From Anaerovoracaceae bacterium (GTDB lineage Bacteria; Bacillota; Clostridia; Peptostreptococcales; Anaerovoracaceae), in NCBI GenBank assembly GCA_051883075.1, contig JBJETA010000005.1, positions 8,126-72,125 of the forward strand: a stretch of 64,000 bases of DNA. Reading direction: 5' to 3'. How positions within the stretch are numbered: the first letter of the stretch is position 1; the number at the start of each line of letters is the position of its first letter. The translations under genes and the position numbers were made by a program. The notes below the pieces were generated by a model. The model ran no database searches. It worked only from the letters and a program-made list of their open reading frames with translations, and was not told the DNA's origin. This document shows positions 8,518 through 58,924 of the stretch, piece after piece.

Positions 8518-9634
8518 GACAGTTTCATCAACATTTGGACACAATATCAAAATAACAATTGCAGGCGGCTCCCACGAACCTGAGATTTCAGTTGTTGCAG
8601 AGGGATTCCCCGCAGATGAAAAAATAGATTTGGACAGACTTCAGACATTTATGTCCAGAAGAGCTCCCGGGAACAGTATTTTTGCAACGCCGCGAAAGGA
8701 AGCGGATGTTCCCGTATTTGAATCGGGATTCCGTGCACCGGAACCGGAGGACAGCAGAATCAGAATTACAGACGGCAGTCCTTTGAAAGCCGTAATCAGA
8801 AACACAAATACCCGCTCTTCGGACTATTCAAATCTCCGGGATATACCCAGACCCGCACATGCAGACTTTACCGCCGCTGCAAGATACGGAAATACGGTAA
8901 ACATGTCGGGCGGCGGTCCGTTTTCCGCAAGAATGACTGCTCCGCTTTGCATTGCAGGCGGTATTGCTCTTCAGATTCTTGAAAGGAAAGGCATTCACAT
9001 AGGCGCCCATATTTATTCTGTTGGCGCTGTAAGAGACATGGCATTTGATCCTGTTTCTACAGAAGCTTCCGGGCTTCAGGCTTTGAAAGAACTTGACTTT
9101 CCTGTTCTCGACCACGACAGGGGCGAAGCCATGAAGCAGGAAATACTTGCTGCTAAGAAGGACGAGGATTCTGTCGGCGGCATCATTGAAGCAATCGTTC
9201 TGGGACTTCCAAAAGGATATGGCGGAGCCATGTATGACGGTATCGAAAGCCGGCTCGCACCTGTTCTCTTCGGTATTCCTGCCGTAAAGGGCATAGAGTT
9301 CGGAAACGGCTTTGCGGCTTCCACGCTTCGCGGCTCAGAAAACAACGATGCATTTATTATAAAAAACGGGGAAATCAGGACCGCCACCAACAACCACGGC
9401 GGTATCCTGGGCGGAATATCTTCAGGGATGCCTGTTATCTGCCGCCTGGCATTTAAGCCTACCCCTTCCATAGGCAGGGAACAGCAGTCTGTAAGCATGA
9501 GCCGTATGGAAGCTGCACCCCTGAAAATCCGGGGCAGGCATGACCCATGTGTTGCAGTCCGTGCAGTTCCTATCGTGGAAGCGGCACTTGCAGTGTGTAT
9601 TCTGGATCTGCTTCTGGAAAATCCGGAGTTTTGA
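8498..9634 (+). CDS. aroC: Chorismate synthase (divergent N-terminal signature)
   Basis: C-terminal signature RGRHDPCVAVRAVPIVEA and PRPAHAD. The N-terminal motif reads GGSHEPEI rather than the usual GESHG. The true start may be TTG 8507, 8 nt after GGAGG. It overlaps the aroA 3' end. Confidence 0.88.
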   Translation: MNILSFKTVSSTFGHNIKITIAGGSHEPEISVVAEGFPADEKIDLDRLQTFMSRRAPGNSIFATPRKEADVPVFESGFRAPEPEDSRIRITDGSPLKAVIRNTNTRSSDYSNLRDIPRPAHADFTAAARYGNTVNMSGGGPFSARMTAPLCIAGGIALQILERKGIHIGAHIYSVGAVRDMAFDPVSTEASGLQALKELDFPVLDHDRGEAMKQEILAAKKDEDSVGGIIEAIVLGLPKGYGGAMYDGIESRLAPVLFGIPAVKGIEFGNGFAASTLRGSENNDAFIIKNGEIRTATNNHGGILGGISSGMPVICRLAFKPTPSIGREQQSVSMSRMEAAPLKIRGRHDPCVAVRAVPIVEAALAVCILDLLLENPEF

Positions 9635-9674: not shown

Positions 9675-10814
9675 ATGTCTTTAAACAATATAAGAGAAGA
9701 AATTGATAATATCGATAAACAGTTAGTTGACCTGTTTGTAAAACGTATGGACATGGCAAAAAAGGTTGCCGAAGAAAAGAAAGCTGCAGGTTCTCCCGTT
9801 TTAAACGTCCAGCGCGAAAGGGAAATTCTTACCAGAGTTTCGGAACAGGCGGGAGAAGAGCTTGACGGTTATGTAAGGCTTCTTTACAACACTATATTTG
9901 ATATAAGCCGTTCCCATCAGAACCGTATCATTCACAAAGACAGTCCCATCAAAGAAAAAATTGAAGCGGCGCTGAAGAATACACCTGCAATGTTTCCCTC
10001 CAAGGCAACCGTTGCATGCCAGGGTGTGGAGGGGGCTTATTCCCAGCTTGCTGCAGAGAAGCTTTTTGCAGTTCCTTCCATTATGTATTTCCAGAACTTT
10101 GAAAGTGTCTTCAATGCAGTAGCAAAAGGTCTTTGCAGATACGGCATCCTTCCTATTGAGAACAGTTCCCACGGTTCTGTCGGAGAAGTATATGATTTAA
10201 TGAAGCATTACAACTTCCATATAGCCAAGTGTATCAAGCTCCGCATATCCCACAAGCTGCTTGCAAAGCCCGGCACAAAGCTTGAGGATATTACTGAAAT
10301 AGTCTCACACGAACAGGCTCTCGGTCAGTGTGCCGACTTTATCAAAAGTCTGAAAGGCGTAAAAATTACCGTATGTGAAAATACGGCGGTTGCAGCTGAA
10401 ACTGTTGCAGCCAGCGGCAGAAACGACATAGCGGCTATATCCTCAGCCGACTGTGCAAGACTTTACGGTCTTTCTGTCATCAGAGATGATATTCAGATAA
10501 GTGACAACAATTACACACGTTTTATCTGTATCTCCAAGGATCTTGAAATATATCCGGGTGCAAACAAAATAAGCCTTATGCTTTCACTTCCTCATCGTCC
10601 TATGTCGCTTTACAATATGCTTGCACGCTTCTCAACACTGGGTCTGAATCTTACAAAGCTTGAATCACGCCCTATCCCGGGAAGCGATTTCGAGTTTATG
10701 TTTTACTTTGATATGGAAGCTTCCGTAGTTTCCTCGGATGTAGTCAGCCTGCTGGGTGAACTTTCAGATCAGCCTGAGTTGTTTGTTTTCCTTGGAAACT
10801 ACATCGAAAACTAA
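9675..10814 (+). CDS. pheA: Bifunctional chorismate mutase / prephenate dehydratase
   Basis: N-terminal CM type-2 helix (IREEIDNIDKQLVDLFVKRM), PDT domain and C-terminal ACT domain. GGAGG RBS present. Confidence 0.9.
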   Translation: MSLNNIREEIDNIDKQLVDLFVKRMDMAKKVAEEKKAAGSPVLNVQREREILTRVSEQAGEELDGYVRLLYNTIFDISRSHQNRIIHKDSPIKEKIEAALKNTPAMFPSKATVACQGVEGAYSQLAAEKLFAVPSIMYFQNFESVFNAVAKGLCRYGILPIENSSHGSVGEVYDLMKHYNFHIAKCIKLRISHKLLAKPGTKLEDITEIVSHEQALGQCADFIKSLKGVKITVCENTAVAAETVAASGRNDIAAISSADCARLYGLSVIRDDIQISDNNYTRFICISKDLEIYPGANKISLMLSLPHRPMSLYNMLARFSTLGLNLTKLESRPIPGSDFEFMFYFDMEASVVSSDVVSLLGELSDQPELFVFLGNYIEN

Positions 10815-22559: not shown

Positions 22560-24389
22560 TTATTCTATGTTGCTTATGCCCCGTTTAACCGAAAGCGGCA
22601 GGGTAACTGTCACCTTGGTGCCCTTTCCATCCTTACTTTCAAGACTGATGGTGCCTTTATGACTTTCAACTATCTGCTTTGATATGGCAAGCCCCAGACC
22701 TGTACCGCCCATGGCCCTTGAACGCGCCTTGTCAACACGGAAGAAGCGTTCAAACACACGGCTTTGCTCACTTTCAGGTATGCCTATACCGTTATCCGCA
22801 ACGGTTATAACTGCATTTCCGTCCAGCTTCATGCCGTCTATGTCTATTCGTCCGCCTTCATGGGTGTACTTTATGGCATTACTGATAATGTTCAGCAGCA
22901 CCTGCTCTATCCTGTCTTTATCCATATCCACGTTAATGACCTCATCCTCGCTGAAGATGCAGTTCAGATGCTGGTCCTTTCCCGCTGCGGTAAGCTCGAC
23001 TTTTTTAACTGCCGATTTCAGCAAAGGTATGATGTTGCCCTGCTTTGTCTGCAGGATTTCCCTGTTGTTGTCAAGCCGTGAAAGCTGAAGCAGGTCTTTT
23101 ACCAGACGGTTCATTCGGTCCGCCTCGTTATCCACAATGCTTAAAAATTCATGCACCGTTTCCGGGTCATCAACATATCCGTCAAGAAGAGTCTCCGTAT
23201 AGCTCTTGATTGTTGTCAAAGGTGTTTTCAGCTCATGCGATACATTTGCAACAAAGTCCATCTGCATATTTTCAAGCTTCTGCTTCTGGGTAATGTCCTG
23301 AAGCAGCATAATGATGCCTATATTACTTCCGCCTTCGTCCTTATACCAGTCACACCTCATTGCATAGGTAAAGCCGCCTTTTTCGAATACATCTGAAAAT
23401 TCCCTTTCTCTGAACTTCTCTATAAGATGCTCCAGAGTAAGTCCTTCATTCAGTTCTGCAATAATGCTGTCATAAGTCCTGCTTTCGATTTCTTCAGGTG
23501 TTACTTTCAGAATCCTCATGGCAGCAGGATTCGCATGTATAATCTGTCCGTCAAGATTTACCGCAATCAGGCCGTCCGTCATATTTTTCAGGATTGTTTC
23601 CAGCTTGTTTTTTTCACCTGACATCTCCGAAAGAGTTGCATCAAGCTGTGTACGCAGCAGGTTAAACATATATGCAAGCCTTCCGATTTCATCCTCAGCC
23701 TTTACCGTAACCTCCTGGGAAAAGTCTCCCTGTGCCATTTTTTCCGCTTTTTCCGTCACATCATTAATCGGTGTGGTAATGCTTTTGGCTATAAAGGTTC
23801 CCAGTATAACCGTAATCGCCAGACCGACAATCATCGCCTGTATAAATATCTGCTTTGACTGGTTTATGGTATCGTTTACATTTGTCATATCGGCACGGAT
23901 ATAAATAACCCCGGAAATATTGTCTCCCTCTCCCAGAGGAAACGCCATATTCATAACAGGTATGGCACTGCTCTGATTTGAGATTTTGCTGTACGACTGT
24001 GATACCTCTCCGTTAAAAAGCGCATTGTATATAAGGTCAGGCTCAAGCAGCTCAAACGCACTTATTCCATGATTTGCATTGTTTGATGCTATTATCATGA
24101 ATTTATCATCAATAACAAATATTTCTTCCTGTATGGTTCTGCTCCACGCCTCAATATTCGCCTGTATTTCTTCCTGATAATCCCTGAGGTTTTCATACGA
24201 GTTAAGAGAGGTTATAAGTGTACCCTCCTGAACTGTATTTATAAGATTCACCTTTGTTGAGTTTATATAGTAATCCTCAAGCTTGTTTACTATCAGAACT
24301 CCTATAATAACCGTAGCGATAAAAACCAGCAGACAGTATATAAGGACCAGTTTCCATCTCATGCTTCGGCCGAATTCGCTTATTTTCAT
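22560..24389 (-). CDS. Sensor histidine kinase (TM - extracellular domain - TM - HAMP - PAS - HisKA - HATPase), WalK/PhoR-like
   Basis: H-box FVANVSHELKTPLT, N-box NAIKYT, G-boxes DNGIGI and GGTGLGLAI. HAMP and PAS segments are present. Confidence 0.9.
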   Translation of the reverse strand: MKISEFGRSMRWKLVLIYCLLVFIATVIIGVLIVNKLEDYYINSTKVNLINTVQEGTLITSLNSYENLRDYQEEIQANIEAWSRTIQEEIFVIDDKFMIIASNNANHGISAFELLEPDLIYNALFNGEVSQSYSKISNQSSAIPVMNMAFPLGEGDNISGVIYIRADMTNVNDTINQSKQIFIQAMIVGLAITVILGTFIAKSITTPINDVTEKAEKMAQGDFSQEVTVKAEDEIGRLAYMFNLLRTQLDATLSEMSGEKNKLETILKNMTDGLIAVNLDGQIIHANPAAMRILKVTPEEIESRTYDSIIAELNEGLTLEHLIEKFREREFSDVFEKGGFTYAMRCDWYKDEGGSNIGIIMLLQDITQKQKLENMQMDFVANVSHELKTPLTTIKSYTETLLDGYVDDPETVHEFLSIVDNEADRMNRLVKDLLQLSRLDNNREILQTKQGNIIPLLKSAVKKVELTAAGKDQHLNCIFSEDEVINVDMDKDRIEQVLLNIISNAIKYTHEGGRIDIDGMKLDGNAVITVADNGIGIPESEQSRVFERFFRVDKARSRAMGGTGLGLAISKQIVESHKGTISLESKDGKGTKVTVTLPLSVKRGISNIE

Positions 24390-42252: not shown

Positions 42253-42320
42253 AAATTTATAATAAAAAAGGGCAAATCAGGGAAAATCCTTGCATTTGTC
42301 CTTTTGTTTTTTTGCATTAT

Positions 42321-42878
42321 TTAATCATCTAACCCACATTTGTCTTTATTTTCTCTTATGTACTCGATAACCCTCGGTGCAGCTATAACAAACCACGGTG
42401 CGAACTTTTCAGGCTGCTCCTTTATCTGCTTTTCAACTTCTTCAAACTCAATCCACTGCATATCTGCAACTTCATCAGGGTTAATTTTAAATCCTCCGTC
42501 ATATCTTCCTATAAACACATGGTCATACTCGTGCTCATATAAATCATCATGAAATTTGTGTTTATACACGAAGGAGAAAATTTCTTCCACAGAGCACGAA
42601 ATCCCTGTTTCTTCAACAAGTCGGGCTTCTGCATCTTCCTTTATCCACAAGTTATCCACAGGATGTGAACAACATGTATTTGCCCACAGTCCCCCTGAAT
42701 GATATTTATGAAAAGCTCTTTGTTGTATCAGCAGCTTTCCGTCATTGTAAAGAAAAATTGAAAATGCCCTGTGCAGCATAGGACTTTGATGTGCTTCAGT
42801 TTTCGACATTTTCCCAACTATTGTGTCATTTTCATCAACTAACAAAACTTTGCTTCTGTCAATATTTTTATTTATCAT
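42321..42878 (-). CDS. idi: Isopentenyl-diphosphate delta-isomerase, type 1 (Nudix)
   Basis: LHRAFSIFLYN...LLIQQRA..K....GLWANTCCSHP, a Nudix-like EETGI, 185 aa. Confidence 0.85.
   Translation of the reverse strand: MINKNIDRSKVLLVDENDTIVGKMSKTEAHQSPMLHRAFSIFLYNDGKLLIQQRAFHKYHSGGLWANTCCSHPVDNLWIKEDAEARLVEETGISCSVEEIFSFVYKHKFHDDLYEHEYDHVFIGRYDGGFKINPDEVADMQWIEFEEVEKQIKEQPEKFAPWFVIAAPRVIEYIRENKDKCGLDD
42641..42660. promoter_or_regulatory. Two tandem perfect DnaA boxes inside idi
   Basis: TTATCCACA at 42641-42649 and again at 42652-42660, in direct orientation. Confidence 0.7.
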
Positions 42879-43530
42879 TTCCGTACCTCTGCATTATTTC
42901 ATTTTTCTTTTCCTTGATTGCTTCCAGCACTGAAACTGCAATGGTTAATATGCATAAACCAAGACACCAGCCCGCCAGAACATCTGTTGGATAGTGTACC
43001 CCCAGATATATTCTGCTGATTCCTATCATCAGAGGAAGCAGCAAAAGCAGCATTATAAATTTATTCACAGATTTATCCACAGTTTTGTGGATAAGCAGGT
43101 ATACCAAAAATCCATAAAATACAAGGCTTGAACAGGAATGTCCGCTCGGAAAACTAAATCCTCCCTGTGGAATCAGAAAACTTTCCACAGGCGGTCTTGG
43201 CCGTTCAATAAGGTTTTTAAAAAAGGTCTGCACCGCAACTGTAAAAAGTGCCGTGCATGACACCGGAAGGCCTATTTCAAATCTGGTTCTTCTCCATAAA
43301 ATCAGGATTGCACACAGGATTATAATTGTTTCCGAATTTCCCAGTCCCGTTACCGCTTTAACTATCGGCGTCAGTAAGTCACTCCTAAGACTAAGTATTC
43401 CGGTTCGGATTACGCTGTCGAATCTGGGTATTTCCTCATATCGCATATTGTTCATTACCGAGAGGGCAATGGCTATAAATGCTGTGAAGGCTGTAAGTCC
43501 TATAAATATTCTTTTCTTTTTACTGTCCAT
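42868..43530 (-). CDS. PAP2 family phosphatase (BcrC/undecaprenyl-diphosphatase-like)
   Basis: PAP2 motifs PSGHS and SRIYLGVHYPTDV in a multi-TM protein. The start is set at ATG 43530. The 3' end overlaps the idi start by 11 nt. Confidence 0.85.
   Translation of the reverse strand: MDSKKKRIFIGLTAFTAFIAIALSVMNNMRYEEIPRFDSVIRTGILSLRSDLLTPIVKAVTGLGNSETIIILCAILILWRRTRFEIGLPVSCTALFTVAVQTFFKNLIERPRPPVESFLIPQGGFSFPSGHSCSSLVFYGFLVYLLIHKTVDKSVNKFIMLLLLLPLMIGISRIYLGVHYPTDVLAGWCLGLCILTIAVSVLEAIKEKKNEIMQRYGNDK
43061..43094. promoter_or_regulatory. Three DnaA boxes (two perfect, convergent) inside the PAP2 gene
   Basis: TTATTCACA (43061-43069, one mismatch), TTATCCACA (43073-43081) and TGTGGATAA (43086-43094). 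Confidence 0.7.
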
Positions 43531-43671
43531 ATCTCTTAAATCCCCCAATTTTATTTTACCGCCATTCTGTATTATACAACGCTTCCATTTTATTTTCTAT
43601 ATCCTTATTTTATATTAAAAACTATGTTATAATATGAATGTTATAATAAATTTCATTTTGGGAGGCTTTCC

Positions 43672-44412
43672 ATGAAGATTATCAGAAATATACCTATGGT
43701 TATTGAGTTCGTAATGGCTTTACCTGAACTAAGACAGCATAAAAAGAATATTTACAAATACAGAGAGCTTGGAGATCTTGAAAAAGAGAGAGAGTATATC
43801 TTAAAGGCAACATCCACCTGGGGAAAGAGACTGGTCCGTGACCTGAACATTGATTTAAATATCATCGGAAAGGAAAATCTTCCCGATAACGGTCCTGTAG
43901 TTTTCGTTGGAAACCATCAGGGCTACGGCGATATTCCTATTTACTGTGCCGCTCTTGATAAGTTCCAGACAGGTTTTATTGCGAAGGATAGTCTTGAAAA
44001 GGTTCCTCTGTACGGTGAGTGGATAAAAAATATCAGAAGTGTACTTCTGCCGAGAGAAAATCCAAGGGAATCTTTAAAAGCGATGGAAACTGCCGTTGAT
44101 TTAATCAAGCAGGGCTTTTCCATGGTTATCTTTCCCGAAGGACACAGAAGCAAATGCGAAGAAATGGGCGAATTCAAAAAAGGAAGCCTGCGTCTTGCAA
44201 CAAAGCCGGGCGTGCCTGTTGTGCCTATCTCTGTAAACGGTACTTACAAGCTGTTTGAGGAAAGCGGCTATATGAAGAAAAACTTTAAAATAGATTTTAT
44301 GATTCATCCGCCTATTGAAACCTCTTCCCTTTCCAAGCAGGAGGCTTCAAATCTTGCGGAAACTGTTGAAGAAATAGTAAGAAACGGTCTTGAAGAGCTT
44401 AAAAAGCTTTAA
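43672..44412 (+). CDS. plsC: 1-acyl-sn-glycerol-3-phosphate acyltransferase
   Basis: HX4D motif (GNHQGYGD), FPEGHRS and PVVPISV blocks. Confidence 0.85.
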   Translation: MKIIRNIPMVIEFVMALPELRQHKKNIYKYRELGDLEKEREYILKATSTWGKRLVRDLNIDLNIIGKENLPDNGPVVFVGNHQGYGDIPIYCAALDKFQTGFIAKDSLEKVPLYGEWIKNIRSVLLPRENPRESLKAMETAVDLIKQGFSMVIFPEGHRSKCEEMGEFKKGSLRLATKPGVPVVPISVNGTYKLFEESGYMKKNFKIDFMIHPPIETSSLSKQEASNLAETVEEIVRNGLEELKKL

Positions 44413-57084: not shown

Positions 57085-57257
57085 ACGCCGGCTCCTTTAT
57101 TCTTTTTAATATATTTATAGTAGTATTAGTAGTAAGGGCTGTGGATTTGTTGAAAACCACTTTGATCGCTTAAAATTCAAACGTTTCTGTCTGTGGATTA
57201 TTTGTTGATAACTTGTTATTTTTTTGAAACACAGATGTGAATTTTTGTGTATAAATT
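57085..57257. other. oriC part 2 (dnaA-dnaN spacer): degenerate DnaA boxes, GC cluster, DnaA-trio-like repeat and AT-rich unwinding region
   Basis: Near-consensus boxes are TGTGGATTT 57140-57148, TGTGGATTA 57192-57200, TGTTGATAA 57203-57211 and TGTGTATAA 57246-57254. TAG TAG TAT TAG TAG TAA (57118-57135) abuts GGGC plus a box, with the AT-rich stretch 57095-57117 alongside. Confidence 0.75.
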
Positions 57258-58649
57258 TTATAGCCTGCATTGATTTATACTTCGTTGTATTGCTTCAACT
57301 GTTTCTTTAACCGATTCATTCATTTTTATCTCTGCAGCAATTTTTTCGCAGCCGTGCATTACCGTGGTATGATCTCTTTTTCCAAAAGCTTCTCCAATCT
57401 TAGGCAGAGAAAGATCTGTCATTTCACGACAGAGATACATAGCTATCTGACGAGGAAATGCAAGAGCTCTTGTTCTCTTTGATGATTCTATGTCAGCAAC
57501 TTTTATATCAAAGTGTTTGCACACATATTTTTTTATTACTTCAGAATTTATGATTACATCAGTATTCGAGATAATGTCCTTTAATACTTCCTTTGCAAGG
57601 GAAATATTTATAGGTCTGTTCATCAGGTTTGAAAAAGTTATTACTCTTGTAAATGCACCTTCAAGTTCTCTGATGTTTGATTTAATCTTTCCTGCTATCA
57701 GAGCTATGACTTCCATAAGATTGTCATCTACGGCAATGTTTTCAAGCTCAGCCTTTTTTATAAGTATTGCAACTCTGTTCTCATAATCGGCAGGCTGTAT
57801 GTCTGCTATCATGTTCCACTGGAATCTTGATCTTAATCTTTCCTCAATATTTAAAAGCTTTGCCGGAGGTCTGTCACTTGATATGATAATCTGCTTATTT
57901 GATTCGTACAGCGTGTTGAAGGTATGGAAAAATTCTTCCTGTGTACTGTCCTTTCCTTCAATAAACTGTATATCGTCTATAAGCAGAACATCTATGTTTC
58001 TGTATTTGTTCCTGAATTCAATGGTTTTTCTGTCACTTATGGCTTTGATAAGCTCATTTGTAAACATTTCAGATGAAACATACAAAACCTTCAGCTGCGG
58101 ATAATTTACTAGTATGTATTGTCCTATGGCATGCATAAGATGTGTTTTTCCAAGTCCGGAGCCTCCGTATAGGAAAAGAGGATTGTATGAATCTGATGGA
58201 TTTGCAGCAATACATGAAGGTGATTCTGCAACTGCAAGTGAAGCTGCATGTGCGTACATGTTGTTGCTTCCTACTACGAACGAATCAAAGTTGTATCTTG
58301 GATTGAAATAGTATTCATCGGGAAAACGCTTTACAAATGAATCGTCATACTGATCTGTTTTTTTGTTATGCTTTTTTGGCACTGATCTTTCAGCTATATC
58401 ATTGTCTGTTATTTCAATTTTATATTCTTTTCCAAATGCTACTGCTACGGCATTTTTCAGAACAGGTAAATATCTTCCTGTAAGAAGTCCTAAAGCCATT
58501 GGATTTGTGTGCTTCAGATAAAGTATATTGTTTTCTTCATCTATTTTTAAAGGTGATATCGGTAAAAACCATGTTTTATAACTTACCTCAGTAAGGTCAG
58601 GTTCTAAAAGCTCCAGGGTTTTTTCCCATTTTTCTTTAAGATTGTCCAT
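57258..58649 (-). CDS. dnaA: Chromosomal replication initiator protein DnaA
   Basis: AAA+ Walker A GGSGLGKTHL, Walker B LLIDDIQF, and a domain IV DnaA signature (FGKRDHTTVMH). ATG 58649 is preferred. The ORF track start at 58673 has no RBS. Confidence 0.95.
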   Translation of the reverse strand: MDNLKEKWEKTLELLEPDLTEVSYKTWFLPISPLKIDEENNILYLKHTNPMALGLLTGRYLPVLKNAVAVAFGKEYKIEITDNDIAERSVPKKHNKKTDQYDDSFVKRFPDEYYFNPRYNFDSFVVGSNNMYAHAASLAVAESPSCIAANPSDSYNPLFLYGGSGLGKTHLMHAIGQYILVNYPQLKVLYVSSEMFTNELIKAISDRKTIEFRNKYRNIDVLLIDDIQFIEGKDSTQEEFFHTFNTLYESNKQIIISSDRPPAKLLNIEERLRSRFQWNMIADIQPADYENRVAILIKKAELENIAVDDNLMEVIALIAGKIKSNIRELEGAFTRVITFSNLMNRPINISLAKEVLKDIISNTDVIINSEVIKKYVCKHFDIKVADIESSKRTRALAFPRQIAMYLCREMTDLSLPKIGEAFGKRDHTTVMHGCEKIAAEIKMNESVKETVEAIQRSINQCRL

Positions 58650-58673
58650 TTTTTTTACATCCTTATTTATCAT

Positions 58674-58924
58674 ATAAAATTTCGTATGAATTTAAAAAAA
58701 TTATATCAACATAAATATAATATCAAGTAAGTTATCCACAGGCAATAGGCAAAAAAATTTACTTTAATAGTTTTATATAATAAAGTTATCCACATATAGT
58801 GGATAAAATTGTGCATACTTTCAACTTTTTTAACTATATATAGTTTTTTTGAAAAGTTTCTCTATGTAAAATTAAAAAATATATTTTTTTAAAGCCATAT
58901 ATCTTTGTAAAAAAAATTAAAACA
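58674..58924. other. oriC part 1 (upstream of dnaA): DnaA boxes and AT-rich tract
   Basis: Perfect TTATCCACA at 58731-58739 and 58785-58793, plus AGTGGATAA at 58797-58805. The sequence at 58840-58920 is extremely AT-rich. Coding strand polarity switches here. Confidence 0.8.

Follow-up and report, generated by a model that had tools for sequence, protein, structure and literature searches.

A DnaA-box cluster inside the PAP2 and idi genes

The PAP2-idi locus of an Anaerovoracaceae bacterium consists of two minus-strand genes, one encoding a PAP2-family phosphatase of the undecaprenyl-diphosphate or phosphatidylglycerophosphate phosphatase type (42868-43548) and the other a type-1 isopentenyl-diphosphate isomerase (idi, 42321-42878), with the start of idi overlapping the stop of PAP2. 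It was analysed within a 64 kb stretch of contig JBJETA010000005.1, hereafter the window, whose numbering is used for all coordinates except those given for other contigs. Both genes carry DnaA boxes embedded in their codons, and this cluster is the subject of the present report. The Idi protein exceeds both NCBIfam equivalog cut-offs. Based on its Idi and DnaA proteins, the organism is nearest to Aminipila within the Anaerovoracaceae, its DnaA being 84-85% identical to those of A. luticellarii and A. terrae.

We took TTATCCACA as the consensus for a perfect 9-mer box. Two perfect boxes lie in idi, both on the plus strand: box E (42641-42649), over the minus-strand codons for L-W-I-K, and box D (42652-42660), over those for P-V-D-N. 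They stand head-to-tail, separated by a 2-bp spacer. The PAP2 gene hosts box C (43061-43069, plus strand; TTATTCACA, which fits TTWTNCACA; codons S-V-N-K) and the perfect box B (43073-43081, plus strand; codons T-V-D-K), the central and best conserved box of the cluster. C and B are also head-to-tail, with a 3-bp spacer, and B is convergent, across a 4-bp gap, with the perfect box A (43086-43094, minus strand; codons L-I-H-K). An earlier sequence-only reading of this DNA had listed these five boxes, and its positions and sequences for the four perfect ones and TTATTCACA, the 2-nt tandem and 4-nt convergent spacings, the reading frames and encoded peptides, and its gene calls for idi, PAP2 and the neighbouring plsC all hold on re-reading. 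Its list has been extended by a sixth, degenerate box, F (43181-43189, plus strand; codons P-V-E), which reads CTTTCCACA in the window and is counted into the element because most relatives, those of the Aminipila type, have TTTTCCACA there. The element, thus, spans 549 bp (42641-43189) and comprises 5-6 boxes, every one of them inside the PAP2 or idi open reading frame (ORF). It is the sole cluster in the window with at least three relaxed boxes per 150 bp.

The cluster exceeds what chance and coding would produce, according to shuffles and synonymous resampling. Seven perfect boxes are present in the window, the same seven counted before (the four above, one at 23128 and two in oriC, at 58732 and 58786), against 0.68 expected from dinucleotide shuffles, none of 100 of which reached seven. 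When both proteins were held fixed and each codon was redrawn from the window's own codon usage, PAP2 and idi together yielded a mean of 0.27 perfect boxes and a maximum of three, with 0 out of 20,000 resamplings reaching the four observed. The boxes use rare codons: GTG accounts for 16% of Val codons and TTG for 7% of Leu codons. Pairing is also in excess. A scan for boxes paired head-to-tail at a spacing of 2-3 bp, with no more than two mismatches summed over both, retrieved three double boxes in the 64 kb, where a first-order Markov model predicts 0.025: E-D (42641-42660, no mismatches), C-B (43061-43081, one mismatch) and a third one, TTATCAACA-aa-TAATCCACA (57192-57211, minus strand), in the dnaA-dnaN intergenic part of oriC.

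Conservation of the boxes and selection on the DNA motif

The locus was compared with those of ten further distinct ingroup lineages (L081-L087, L001, L003 and L092; L002 duplicates L083) and of two outgroups, L004 (Clostridium aminobutyricum) and L091. Across the ten lineages, identity to the window is 63-88% for Idi; for PAP2 it is 47-56% in nine of them and 98% in L081. Boxes F, A, B and C nevertheless occupy the same PAP2 codons in all ten, with the 4-bp A-B and 3-bp B-C gaps kept, the spacing of the double boxes unchanged in all relatives, and box F exactly 108 bp upstream of B in all lineages. Boxes A-C fit TTWTNCACA in 10-11 out of 11 lineages. Box B is perfect in 10 out of 11 (the exception, L082, has TTTTCCACA), and box A fits in the same number, the box of L085 being shifted by 2 nt. 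Box C varies in relatives solely at position 5, where all four bases occur, and at position 3. Altogether, boxes A-C of the ten lineages depart from TTATCCACA in 22 places, 21 of which fall at position 3 (A to T) or position 5 (any base), and these are the two positions at which the classical consensus, TT[A/T]TNCACA, is degenerate (PMC6868365, PMC4585315).

The codons through which the boxes run follow the same rule. The codon preceding box B varies among T, A, P, I and N, and that preceding box C among S, V, T and I, while their third base is constantly T; the Val of boxes B and C is encoded by GTG without exception. Position 5 of box C coincides with a first codon position, at which all four bases are found (Asn, Tyr, His and Glu) because this box position is degenerate, the opposite of what constraint on the protein would predict. 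Where a third codon position falls on a constrained position of a box, it is invariant in 6 out of 6 cases in PAP2, vs 21 out of 211 over the gene, and in 4 out of 4 in idi, vs 23 out of 179. In a sliding window along PAP2, third-position conservation peaks over box F and over boxes A-C (0.87-0.89, vs a gene mean of 0.50), and third-position identity at the PAP2 boxes is higher than amino-acid conservation at the same places. Weak additional support comes from strain-level gut metagenome contigs, in which none of 40 variants along 621 bp falls in the 45 box positions (P about 0.05), while variants do fall in the C-B spacer, at 43071 and 43072.

The four strain-level contigs all diverge from the window before 42345 (at about 42253-42345), at the 3' end of idi and beyond, where they continue with other sequence. 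The window, therefore, differs from its closest relatives just 3' of idi.

Selection on the DNA motif is thus well supported, since departures are confined to degenerate box positions and otherwise free third positions are invariant within the boxes. This is what the sequence-only reading had proposed in preference to a repeated peptide, and the resampling, the conservation of the PAP2 boxes in orthologues from ten lineages and the strain-level variants that spare the boxes all speak for it. It had also placed the boxes in variable loops. For PAP2, this is accurate across the family, in which the loop is variable, and inaccurate within the clade, where it is fixed as VDK-x-V-x-K, suggesting that constraint on the DNA has shaped a fixed protein loop.

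It is highly improbable that the boxes are a by-product of coding or composition, the site of another DNA-binding protein, or an RNA hairpin formed by A and B. Such accounts could draw on the G/A-rich coding strand, on a surplus of one-mismatch boxes window-wide to about twice the number in shuffles (36 vs 17.65) and on the perfect 9-bp inverted repeat that A and B form in the window. They are largely refuted by the failure of synonymous resampling to reproduce the boxes and by a pattern of variation restricted to the degenerate positions of a DnaA box, with degenerate third codon positions invariant. The hairpin, for its part, was rejected: box A changes at positions 3 and 5 in seven and three lineages, respectively, while B does not change, which disrupts the hairpin in most relatives; no covariation is seen, and an Rfam search at the locus returned no family match.

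What a true by-product looks like can be seen in plsC, a PlsC-like acyltransferase gene (43672-44412, plus strand) divergent from PAP2-idi. It contains the one-mismatch box TTATCCACT (also written AGTGGATAA; 44018-44026, minus strand), within the conserved peptide PLYGEWIKNIRS. The box exists as the earlier reading described it, as a further neighbour of the cluster. We rejected it as a member of the element and regard it as a by-product of coding, because relatives encode PLYGEWIKNIRS with other synonymous codons (GAG/GAA, ATA/ATT): here the peptide is conserved and the codons are free.

The element has a limited phylogenetic range, and its two parts differ in age. No homologous boxes were found among roughly 75 other idi loci (Lachnospiraceae, Oscillospiraceae, Bacteroidota and others), and both outgroups have unrelated sequence at all six box sites. 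Within the ingroup, the idi pair is perfect solely in the window, L081 and L082; its usual form in Aminipila is TTATCCCCA (Val to Gly, Trp to Gly), and in L092 it is absent. The PAP2 boxes, judged by this comparison, are the conserved ancient core, and the idi pair is therefore best seen as a younger, lineage-specific reinforcement of the older element. The view of a single cluster spanning both genes, held in the sequence-only reading, consequently applies to the window's own lineage, the part in PAP2 alone being ancient.

Box arrangement compared with known double boxes and triplets

Both pairs correspond to the double DnaA box described in Escherichia coli, in which two boxes point the same way with 2 or 3 bp between them (Stringer, Fitzgerald and Wade 2024, PMC11317965). 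Chromatin immunoprecipitation sequencing (ChIP-seq) in that species showed that boxes paired in this way are the preferred in vivo target of DnaA and that both boxes and their spacing are required (PMC11317965). The C-B pair closely resembles the E. coli polA and purH sites (TTAxxCACA-nnn-TTATCCACA; PMC11317965). Unlike these, which are upstream operators (only 1 of 16 bound regions was intragenic; PMC11317965), both pairs described here lie inside ORFs.

Read in the sense of the mRNA, the three inner PAP2 boxes form the triplet TTATCCACA-aaac-TGTGGATAA-atc-TGTGAATAA, that is, A(+), B(-) and C(-). The same orientation pattern is found in two other places. One is the family's own oriC, upstream of dnaA, where the triplet TTATCCACA-tat-AGTGGATAA-aat-TGTGCATAC (58786-58818, plus strand) has gaps of 3 and 3 bp; it is kept in Aminipila, in L088 (9805-9837) and L089 (about 9807-9839). 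The PAP2 triplet shares with it the orientation of the three boxes and the 3-bp head-to-tail spacing. The two differ in the convergent gap, 3 bp in oriC and 4 bp in PAP2, and in their setting, as the oriC boxes are less perfect and have AT-rich flanks, while the PAP2 site is coding and lacks such flanks. The other is the core of E. coli DARS1, which reads TTATCCACT-attcc-TGTGGATAA-cca-TGTGTATTA in NC_000913, with a convergent gap of 5 bp, in agreement with the published description of boxes I and II opposed across 5 bp, II and III in tandem, and box II with the full consensus (PMC6868365).

The likeness to DARS1 raises the alternative that the A-B-C triplet is a functional analogue of a DARS core, in which DnaA molecules bound head-to-head on A and B would release ADP and regenerate ATP-DnaA. 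As in the DARS1 and DARS2 cores (Fujimitsu 2009; Sugiyama 2019, PMC6868365), an outer box opposes a full-consensus middle box, a feature stressed for DARS1 box II (PMC6868365), and a third box stands in tandem 3 bp further on; in box orientation and quality the triplet agrees with DARS1, and the triplet module is widespread in metagenomes. We nevertheless consider this role distinctly improbable. The A-B gap is 4 bp in all lineages, not the 5 bp of DARS, and the triplet is intragenic. Gln208 of E. coli DnaA, needed for DARS activity, aligns with Asn in the DnaA of the window and of Aminipila, which may also count against it. No IHF or Fis context was noted at the PAP2 triplet, where an IHF-type site was not searched for, and B. 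subtilis has been reported to lack datA and DARS loci (PMC13220808). Moreover, the same layout occurs in the oriC of this very family and is therefore no sure sign of DARS activity.

Spacing was assessed more broadly by scanning metagenomic contigs (L095-L213) with the pattern CACA-N3-5-TGTGGATAA-NNN-TGTGNAWAA, which retrieved at least 119 loci. Among the matches listed, the five bases before CACA nearly always complete a DnaA box; a convergent gap of 3 bp is seen in 59 loci and one of 5 bp in 55, while a 4-bp gap is limited to 6 (6 out of 120). Among these same matches, 17 out of 59 triplets of the 3-bp class are adjacent to dnaA, as opposed to 1 out of 55 in the 5-bp class, which has the DARS1 spacing. 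This suggests that triplets across bacteria fall into two sharply separated spacing classes. The PAP2 triplet, therefore, has the layout common to both classes but a rare intermediate gap, which, lying in a reading frame, is not free to shift by a single base. The triplet is not filed here as a DARS core.

Other box clusters embedded in codons were detected in the metagenomic contigs. A denser intragenic cluster than that of PAP2-idi occurs in the ORF of an RluA-like pseudouridine synthase (L141, 9312-9447; L171, 3558-3693), where eight same-orientation boxes with at most one mismatch each are packed into about 135 bp and encode a loop rich in VDK, VNK and VDI. Box triplets were also found in long ORFs of L153 (900-1154) and L184 (4082-4114), as well as of L138, L198 and L102, with encoded peptides such as PQTVDNPVNK and GVDKCVYN. 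Their hosts, whose families were judged by eye, include a GH2-like protein of 1261 aa (GH2-like in L153 and L184), a PfkB-like kinase and others. The phenomenon may, thus, be more general than the PAP2-idi locus. A bolder extension, which we find speculative and rather improbable, is that codon-embedded clusters encoding loops of the VDK/VxK type are recurrent and that the PAP2 triplet reproduces the oriC triplet as a functioning regulatory element, acting either as a decoy that would assemble the same DnaA complex as oriC or as a DARS-like site of nucleotide exchange. If true, the triplet would be the first cis-acting regulator of the state of DnaA in Bacillota/Clostridia, and the codon-embedded clusters would represent a hitherto undescribed way of placing DnaA-binding loci.

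Proximity to oriC and the possible role of the cluster

GC skew changes sign near 58 kb, and oriC is therefore placed at about 57.1-59.0 kb, with the cluster 15.6 kb away on the left replichore, close to the 16 kb estimated earlier from the sequence. The dnaA gene lies at 57258-58673 (minus strand), followed by dnaN, recF, gyrB and gyrA. Its longest ORF encodes 471 aa and the database copy of the protein (P0121) has 463 aa; the true start is probably 8 codons 3' of the first ATG. The distance is similar in a relative in which L002 and L088 form one contig, the PAP2 boxes being located about 18 kb from the dnaA start. The gene order gyrB-gyrA...trpS-yitT-plsC-PAP2-idi is kept in Aminipila, and the cluster is origin-proximal in all lineages.

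The outgroups, which have no boxes at the PAP2 and idi sites, both carry a box cluster in an intergenic region some 3.3 kb past idi, upstream of a gene for a periplasmic binding protein. In L091 (9314-9417) it contains perfect boxes at 9314 and 9335 together with TTATACACA, and in L004 it consists of three one-mismatch boxes (9563-9628). This suggests that the location of the cluster turns over while remaining near oriC. A comparable situation has been described in Bacillus, whose clusters lie beside different genes in each species and almost always close to oriC (Okumura et al. 2012, PMC3245932).

Binding of DnaA to the PAP2-idi cluster is very probable, because it carries consensus boxes in the preferred pairing, because the same motif is present at the organism's own origin (TTATCCACA occurs twice in the oriC of the window), because the DNA contacts of domain IV are conserved, and because selection on the boxes mirrors the specificity of DnaA. 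Residues R399, P423, D433, H434, T435 and H439, which we take to be the base-contact residues seen in the domain IV-DNA structure, are invariant with respect to E. coli.

What such binding would do is less clear-cut. The main alternative is that DnaA acts as a transcription factor of the PAP2-idi operon, binding 183-216 bp upstream of the idi start and 218-238 bp inside idi, where it would be a roadblock to RNA polymerase or repress an internal idi promoter, thereby coupling the supply of isoprenoids and lipid carriers to replication status. A role of DnaA in regulating transcription is established in both B. subtilis and E. coli, all but one of the six boxes face the same way relative to transcription, and the element has stayed inside PAP2 throughout the history of the clade despite a change of neighbours, ybjQ having been inserted near PAP2 in Aminipila. 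There is also a promoter-like TGGATA-16-TATAAT on the coding strand, overlapping boxes B and C. The internal promoter itself is unsupported, as promoter-like matches in the region are at chance level (5 vs 5.6 expected) and the -10 element of this one has not been conserved in relatives. Apart from the boxes, synonymous conservation forms no block in the stretch from box C to the idi start; for boxes D and E, neither strand offers a downstream gene that they could regulate; and the sister clade, to which both outgroups belong, retains PAP2-idi without any boxes. Taken with these points, a primarily transcriptional role is doubtful.

We favour the reading, with a probability of roughly 50% including the binding itself, that the element is a vertically inherited, high-affinity DnaA-box cluster written into PAP2 codons and reinforced in idi, which serves as an origin-proximal sink or regulator of DnaA. 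DnaA would bind the consensus boxes through its conserved domain IV and assemble cooperatively into dimers or small oligomers on the double boxes C-B (3 bp) and E-D (2 bp), with the convergent box A and box F adding further protomers. Lying 16-18 kb from oriC, the locus would be duplicated almost at once after initiation, so that DnaA would be held near the origin and free DnaA lowered just after initiation; partial hindrance of PAP2-idi transcription would be a side effect. Given this early duplication, the action of the cluster most likely resembles that of the B. subtilis clusters located near the origin or the way in which E. coli datA titrates DnaA. Such a role is preferred since it is the position, rather than the gene neighbourhood, that seems to be conserved family-wide, and since D and E have no gene to regulate. 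The boxes, their arrangement, the selection at the DNA level and the conserved position are demonstrated here, whereas occupancy by DnaA and an effect on initiation are inferred.

The closest known systems are the DnaA-box clusters (DBCs) of B. subtilis (Okumura et al. 2012, PMC3245932). They also consist of consensus boxes outside but near oriC, in a member of the Bacillota with a dnaA-linked bipartite origin, and they, too, change location from one related lineage to the next without leaving the vicinity of oriC. The six DBCs are all intergenic, in contrast to the PAP2-idi cluster, which lies in the codons of two genes, shapes the peptide and has fewer boxes (5-6). The DBC class is also defined by stable in vivo occupancy by DnaA and early initiation on deletion, and the PAP2-idi cluster is compared with it at the level of sequence. 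E. coli datA resembles the cluster in being origin-proximal, in its about five high-affinity boxes and in its proposed capacity to lower initiation potential once duplicated; it differs in layout, in being non-coding and in stimulating DnaA-ATP hydrolysis together with IHF, a protein that B. subtilis is reported to lack (PMC13220808). The likeness to datA, DARS and the B. subtilis clusters that had been drawn in the sequence-only reading is, thus, apt, the cluster being origin-proximal in all lineages and its double boxes being of the kind preferred in E. coli.

Several observations weigh against a role as sink or regulator. The strongest intragenic in vitro sites of B. subtilis, in rplB and codV, showed no detectable binding in vivo, perhaps because they are cleared by transcription (PMC4447404). 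When any one of the B. subtilis clusters is deleted, hardly any phenotype results (PMC3245932), which makes it doubtful that titration by 5-6 boxes could maintain such strict conservation. A recent review reports that B. subtilis has neither datA nor DARS loci and no known regulators of the nucleotide state of DnaA (PMC13220808). Within the present dataset, the idi pair is not kept outside the window's lineage, and the outgroups' intergenic cluster could equally be the ordinary operator of the adjacent binding-protein gene.

To our knowledge, DnaA-box clusters outside the origin have been established as regulators solely in E. coli (datA, DARS) and B. subtilis (six DBCs), all of them non-coding. 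Our search of the literature on DnaA-box clusters and intragenic boxes found no comparable case for Clostridia. While extra-origin clusters are thus known, one that is embedded in codons, conserved family-wide and able to shape a protein loop is new for Clostridia. At this locus, the demands of DNA binding override those of the protein sequence: the rare codons are invariant, and amino acids are replaced only at places where the box allows it, in lineages that share only about half of their PAP2 residues. The locus also offers a recodable test bed, in which synonymous mutations could separate DnaA binding from protein function. It could help to decide whether DnaA sinks close to the origin are of consequence in Bacillota and whether a conserved mechanistic role underlies the convergent-plus-tandem triplet common to oriC and DARS.

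Elsewhere in the window, one-mismatch boxes on the left replichore lie nearly all on the plus strand, mainly between 14 and 43 kb, which is possibly an effect of codon usage or skew. The isolated perfect box at 23128 belongs to a looser group inside a walK-like histidine kinase gene (22792-23136), where TTATCCGCA, TTATCCATA and the perfect TTATCCACA form three same-orientation boxes within 345 bp; one of the B. subtilis clusters, yydA-yycS, is situated near the walRK (yycFG) region.

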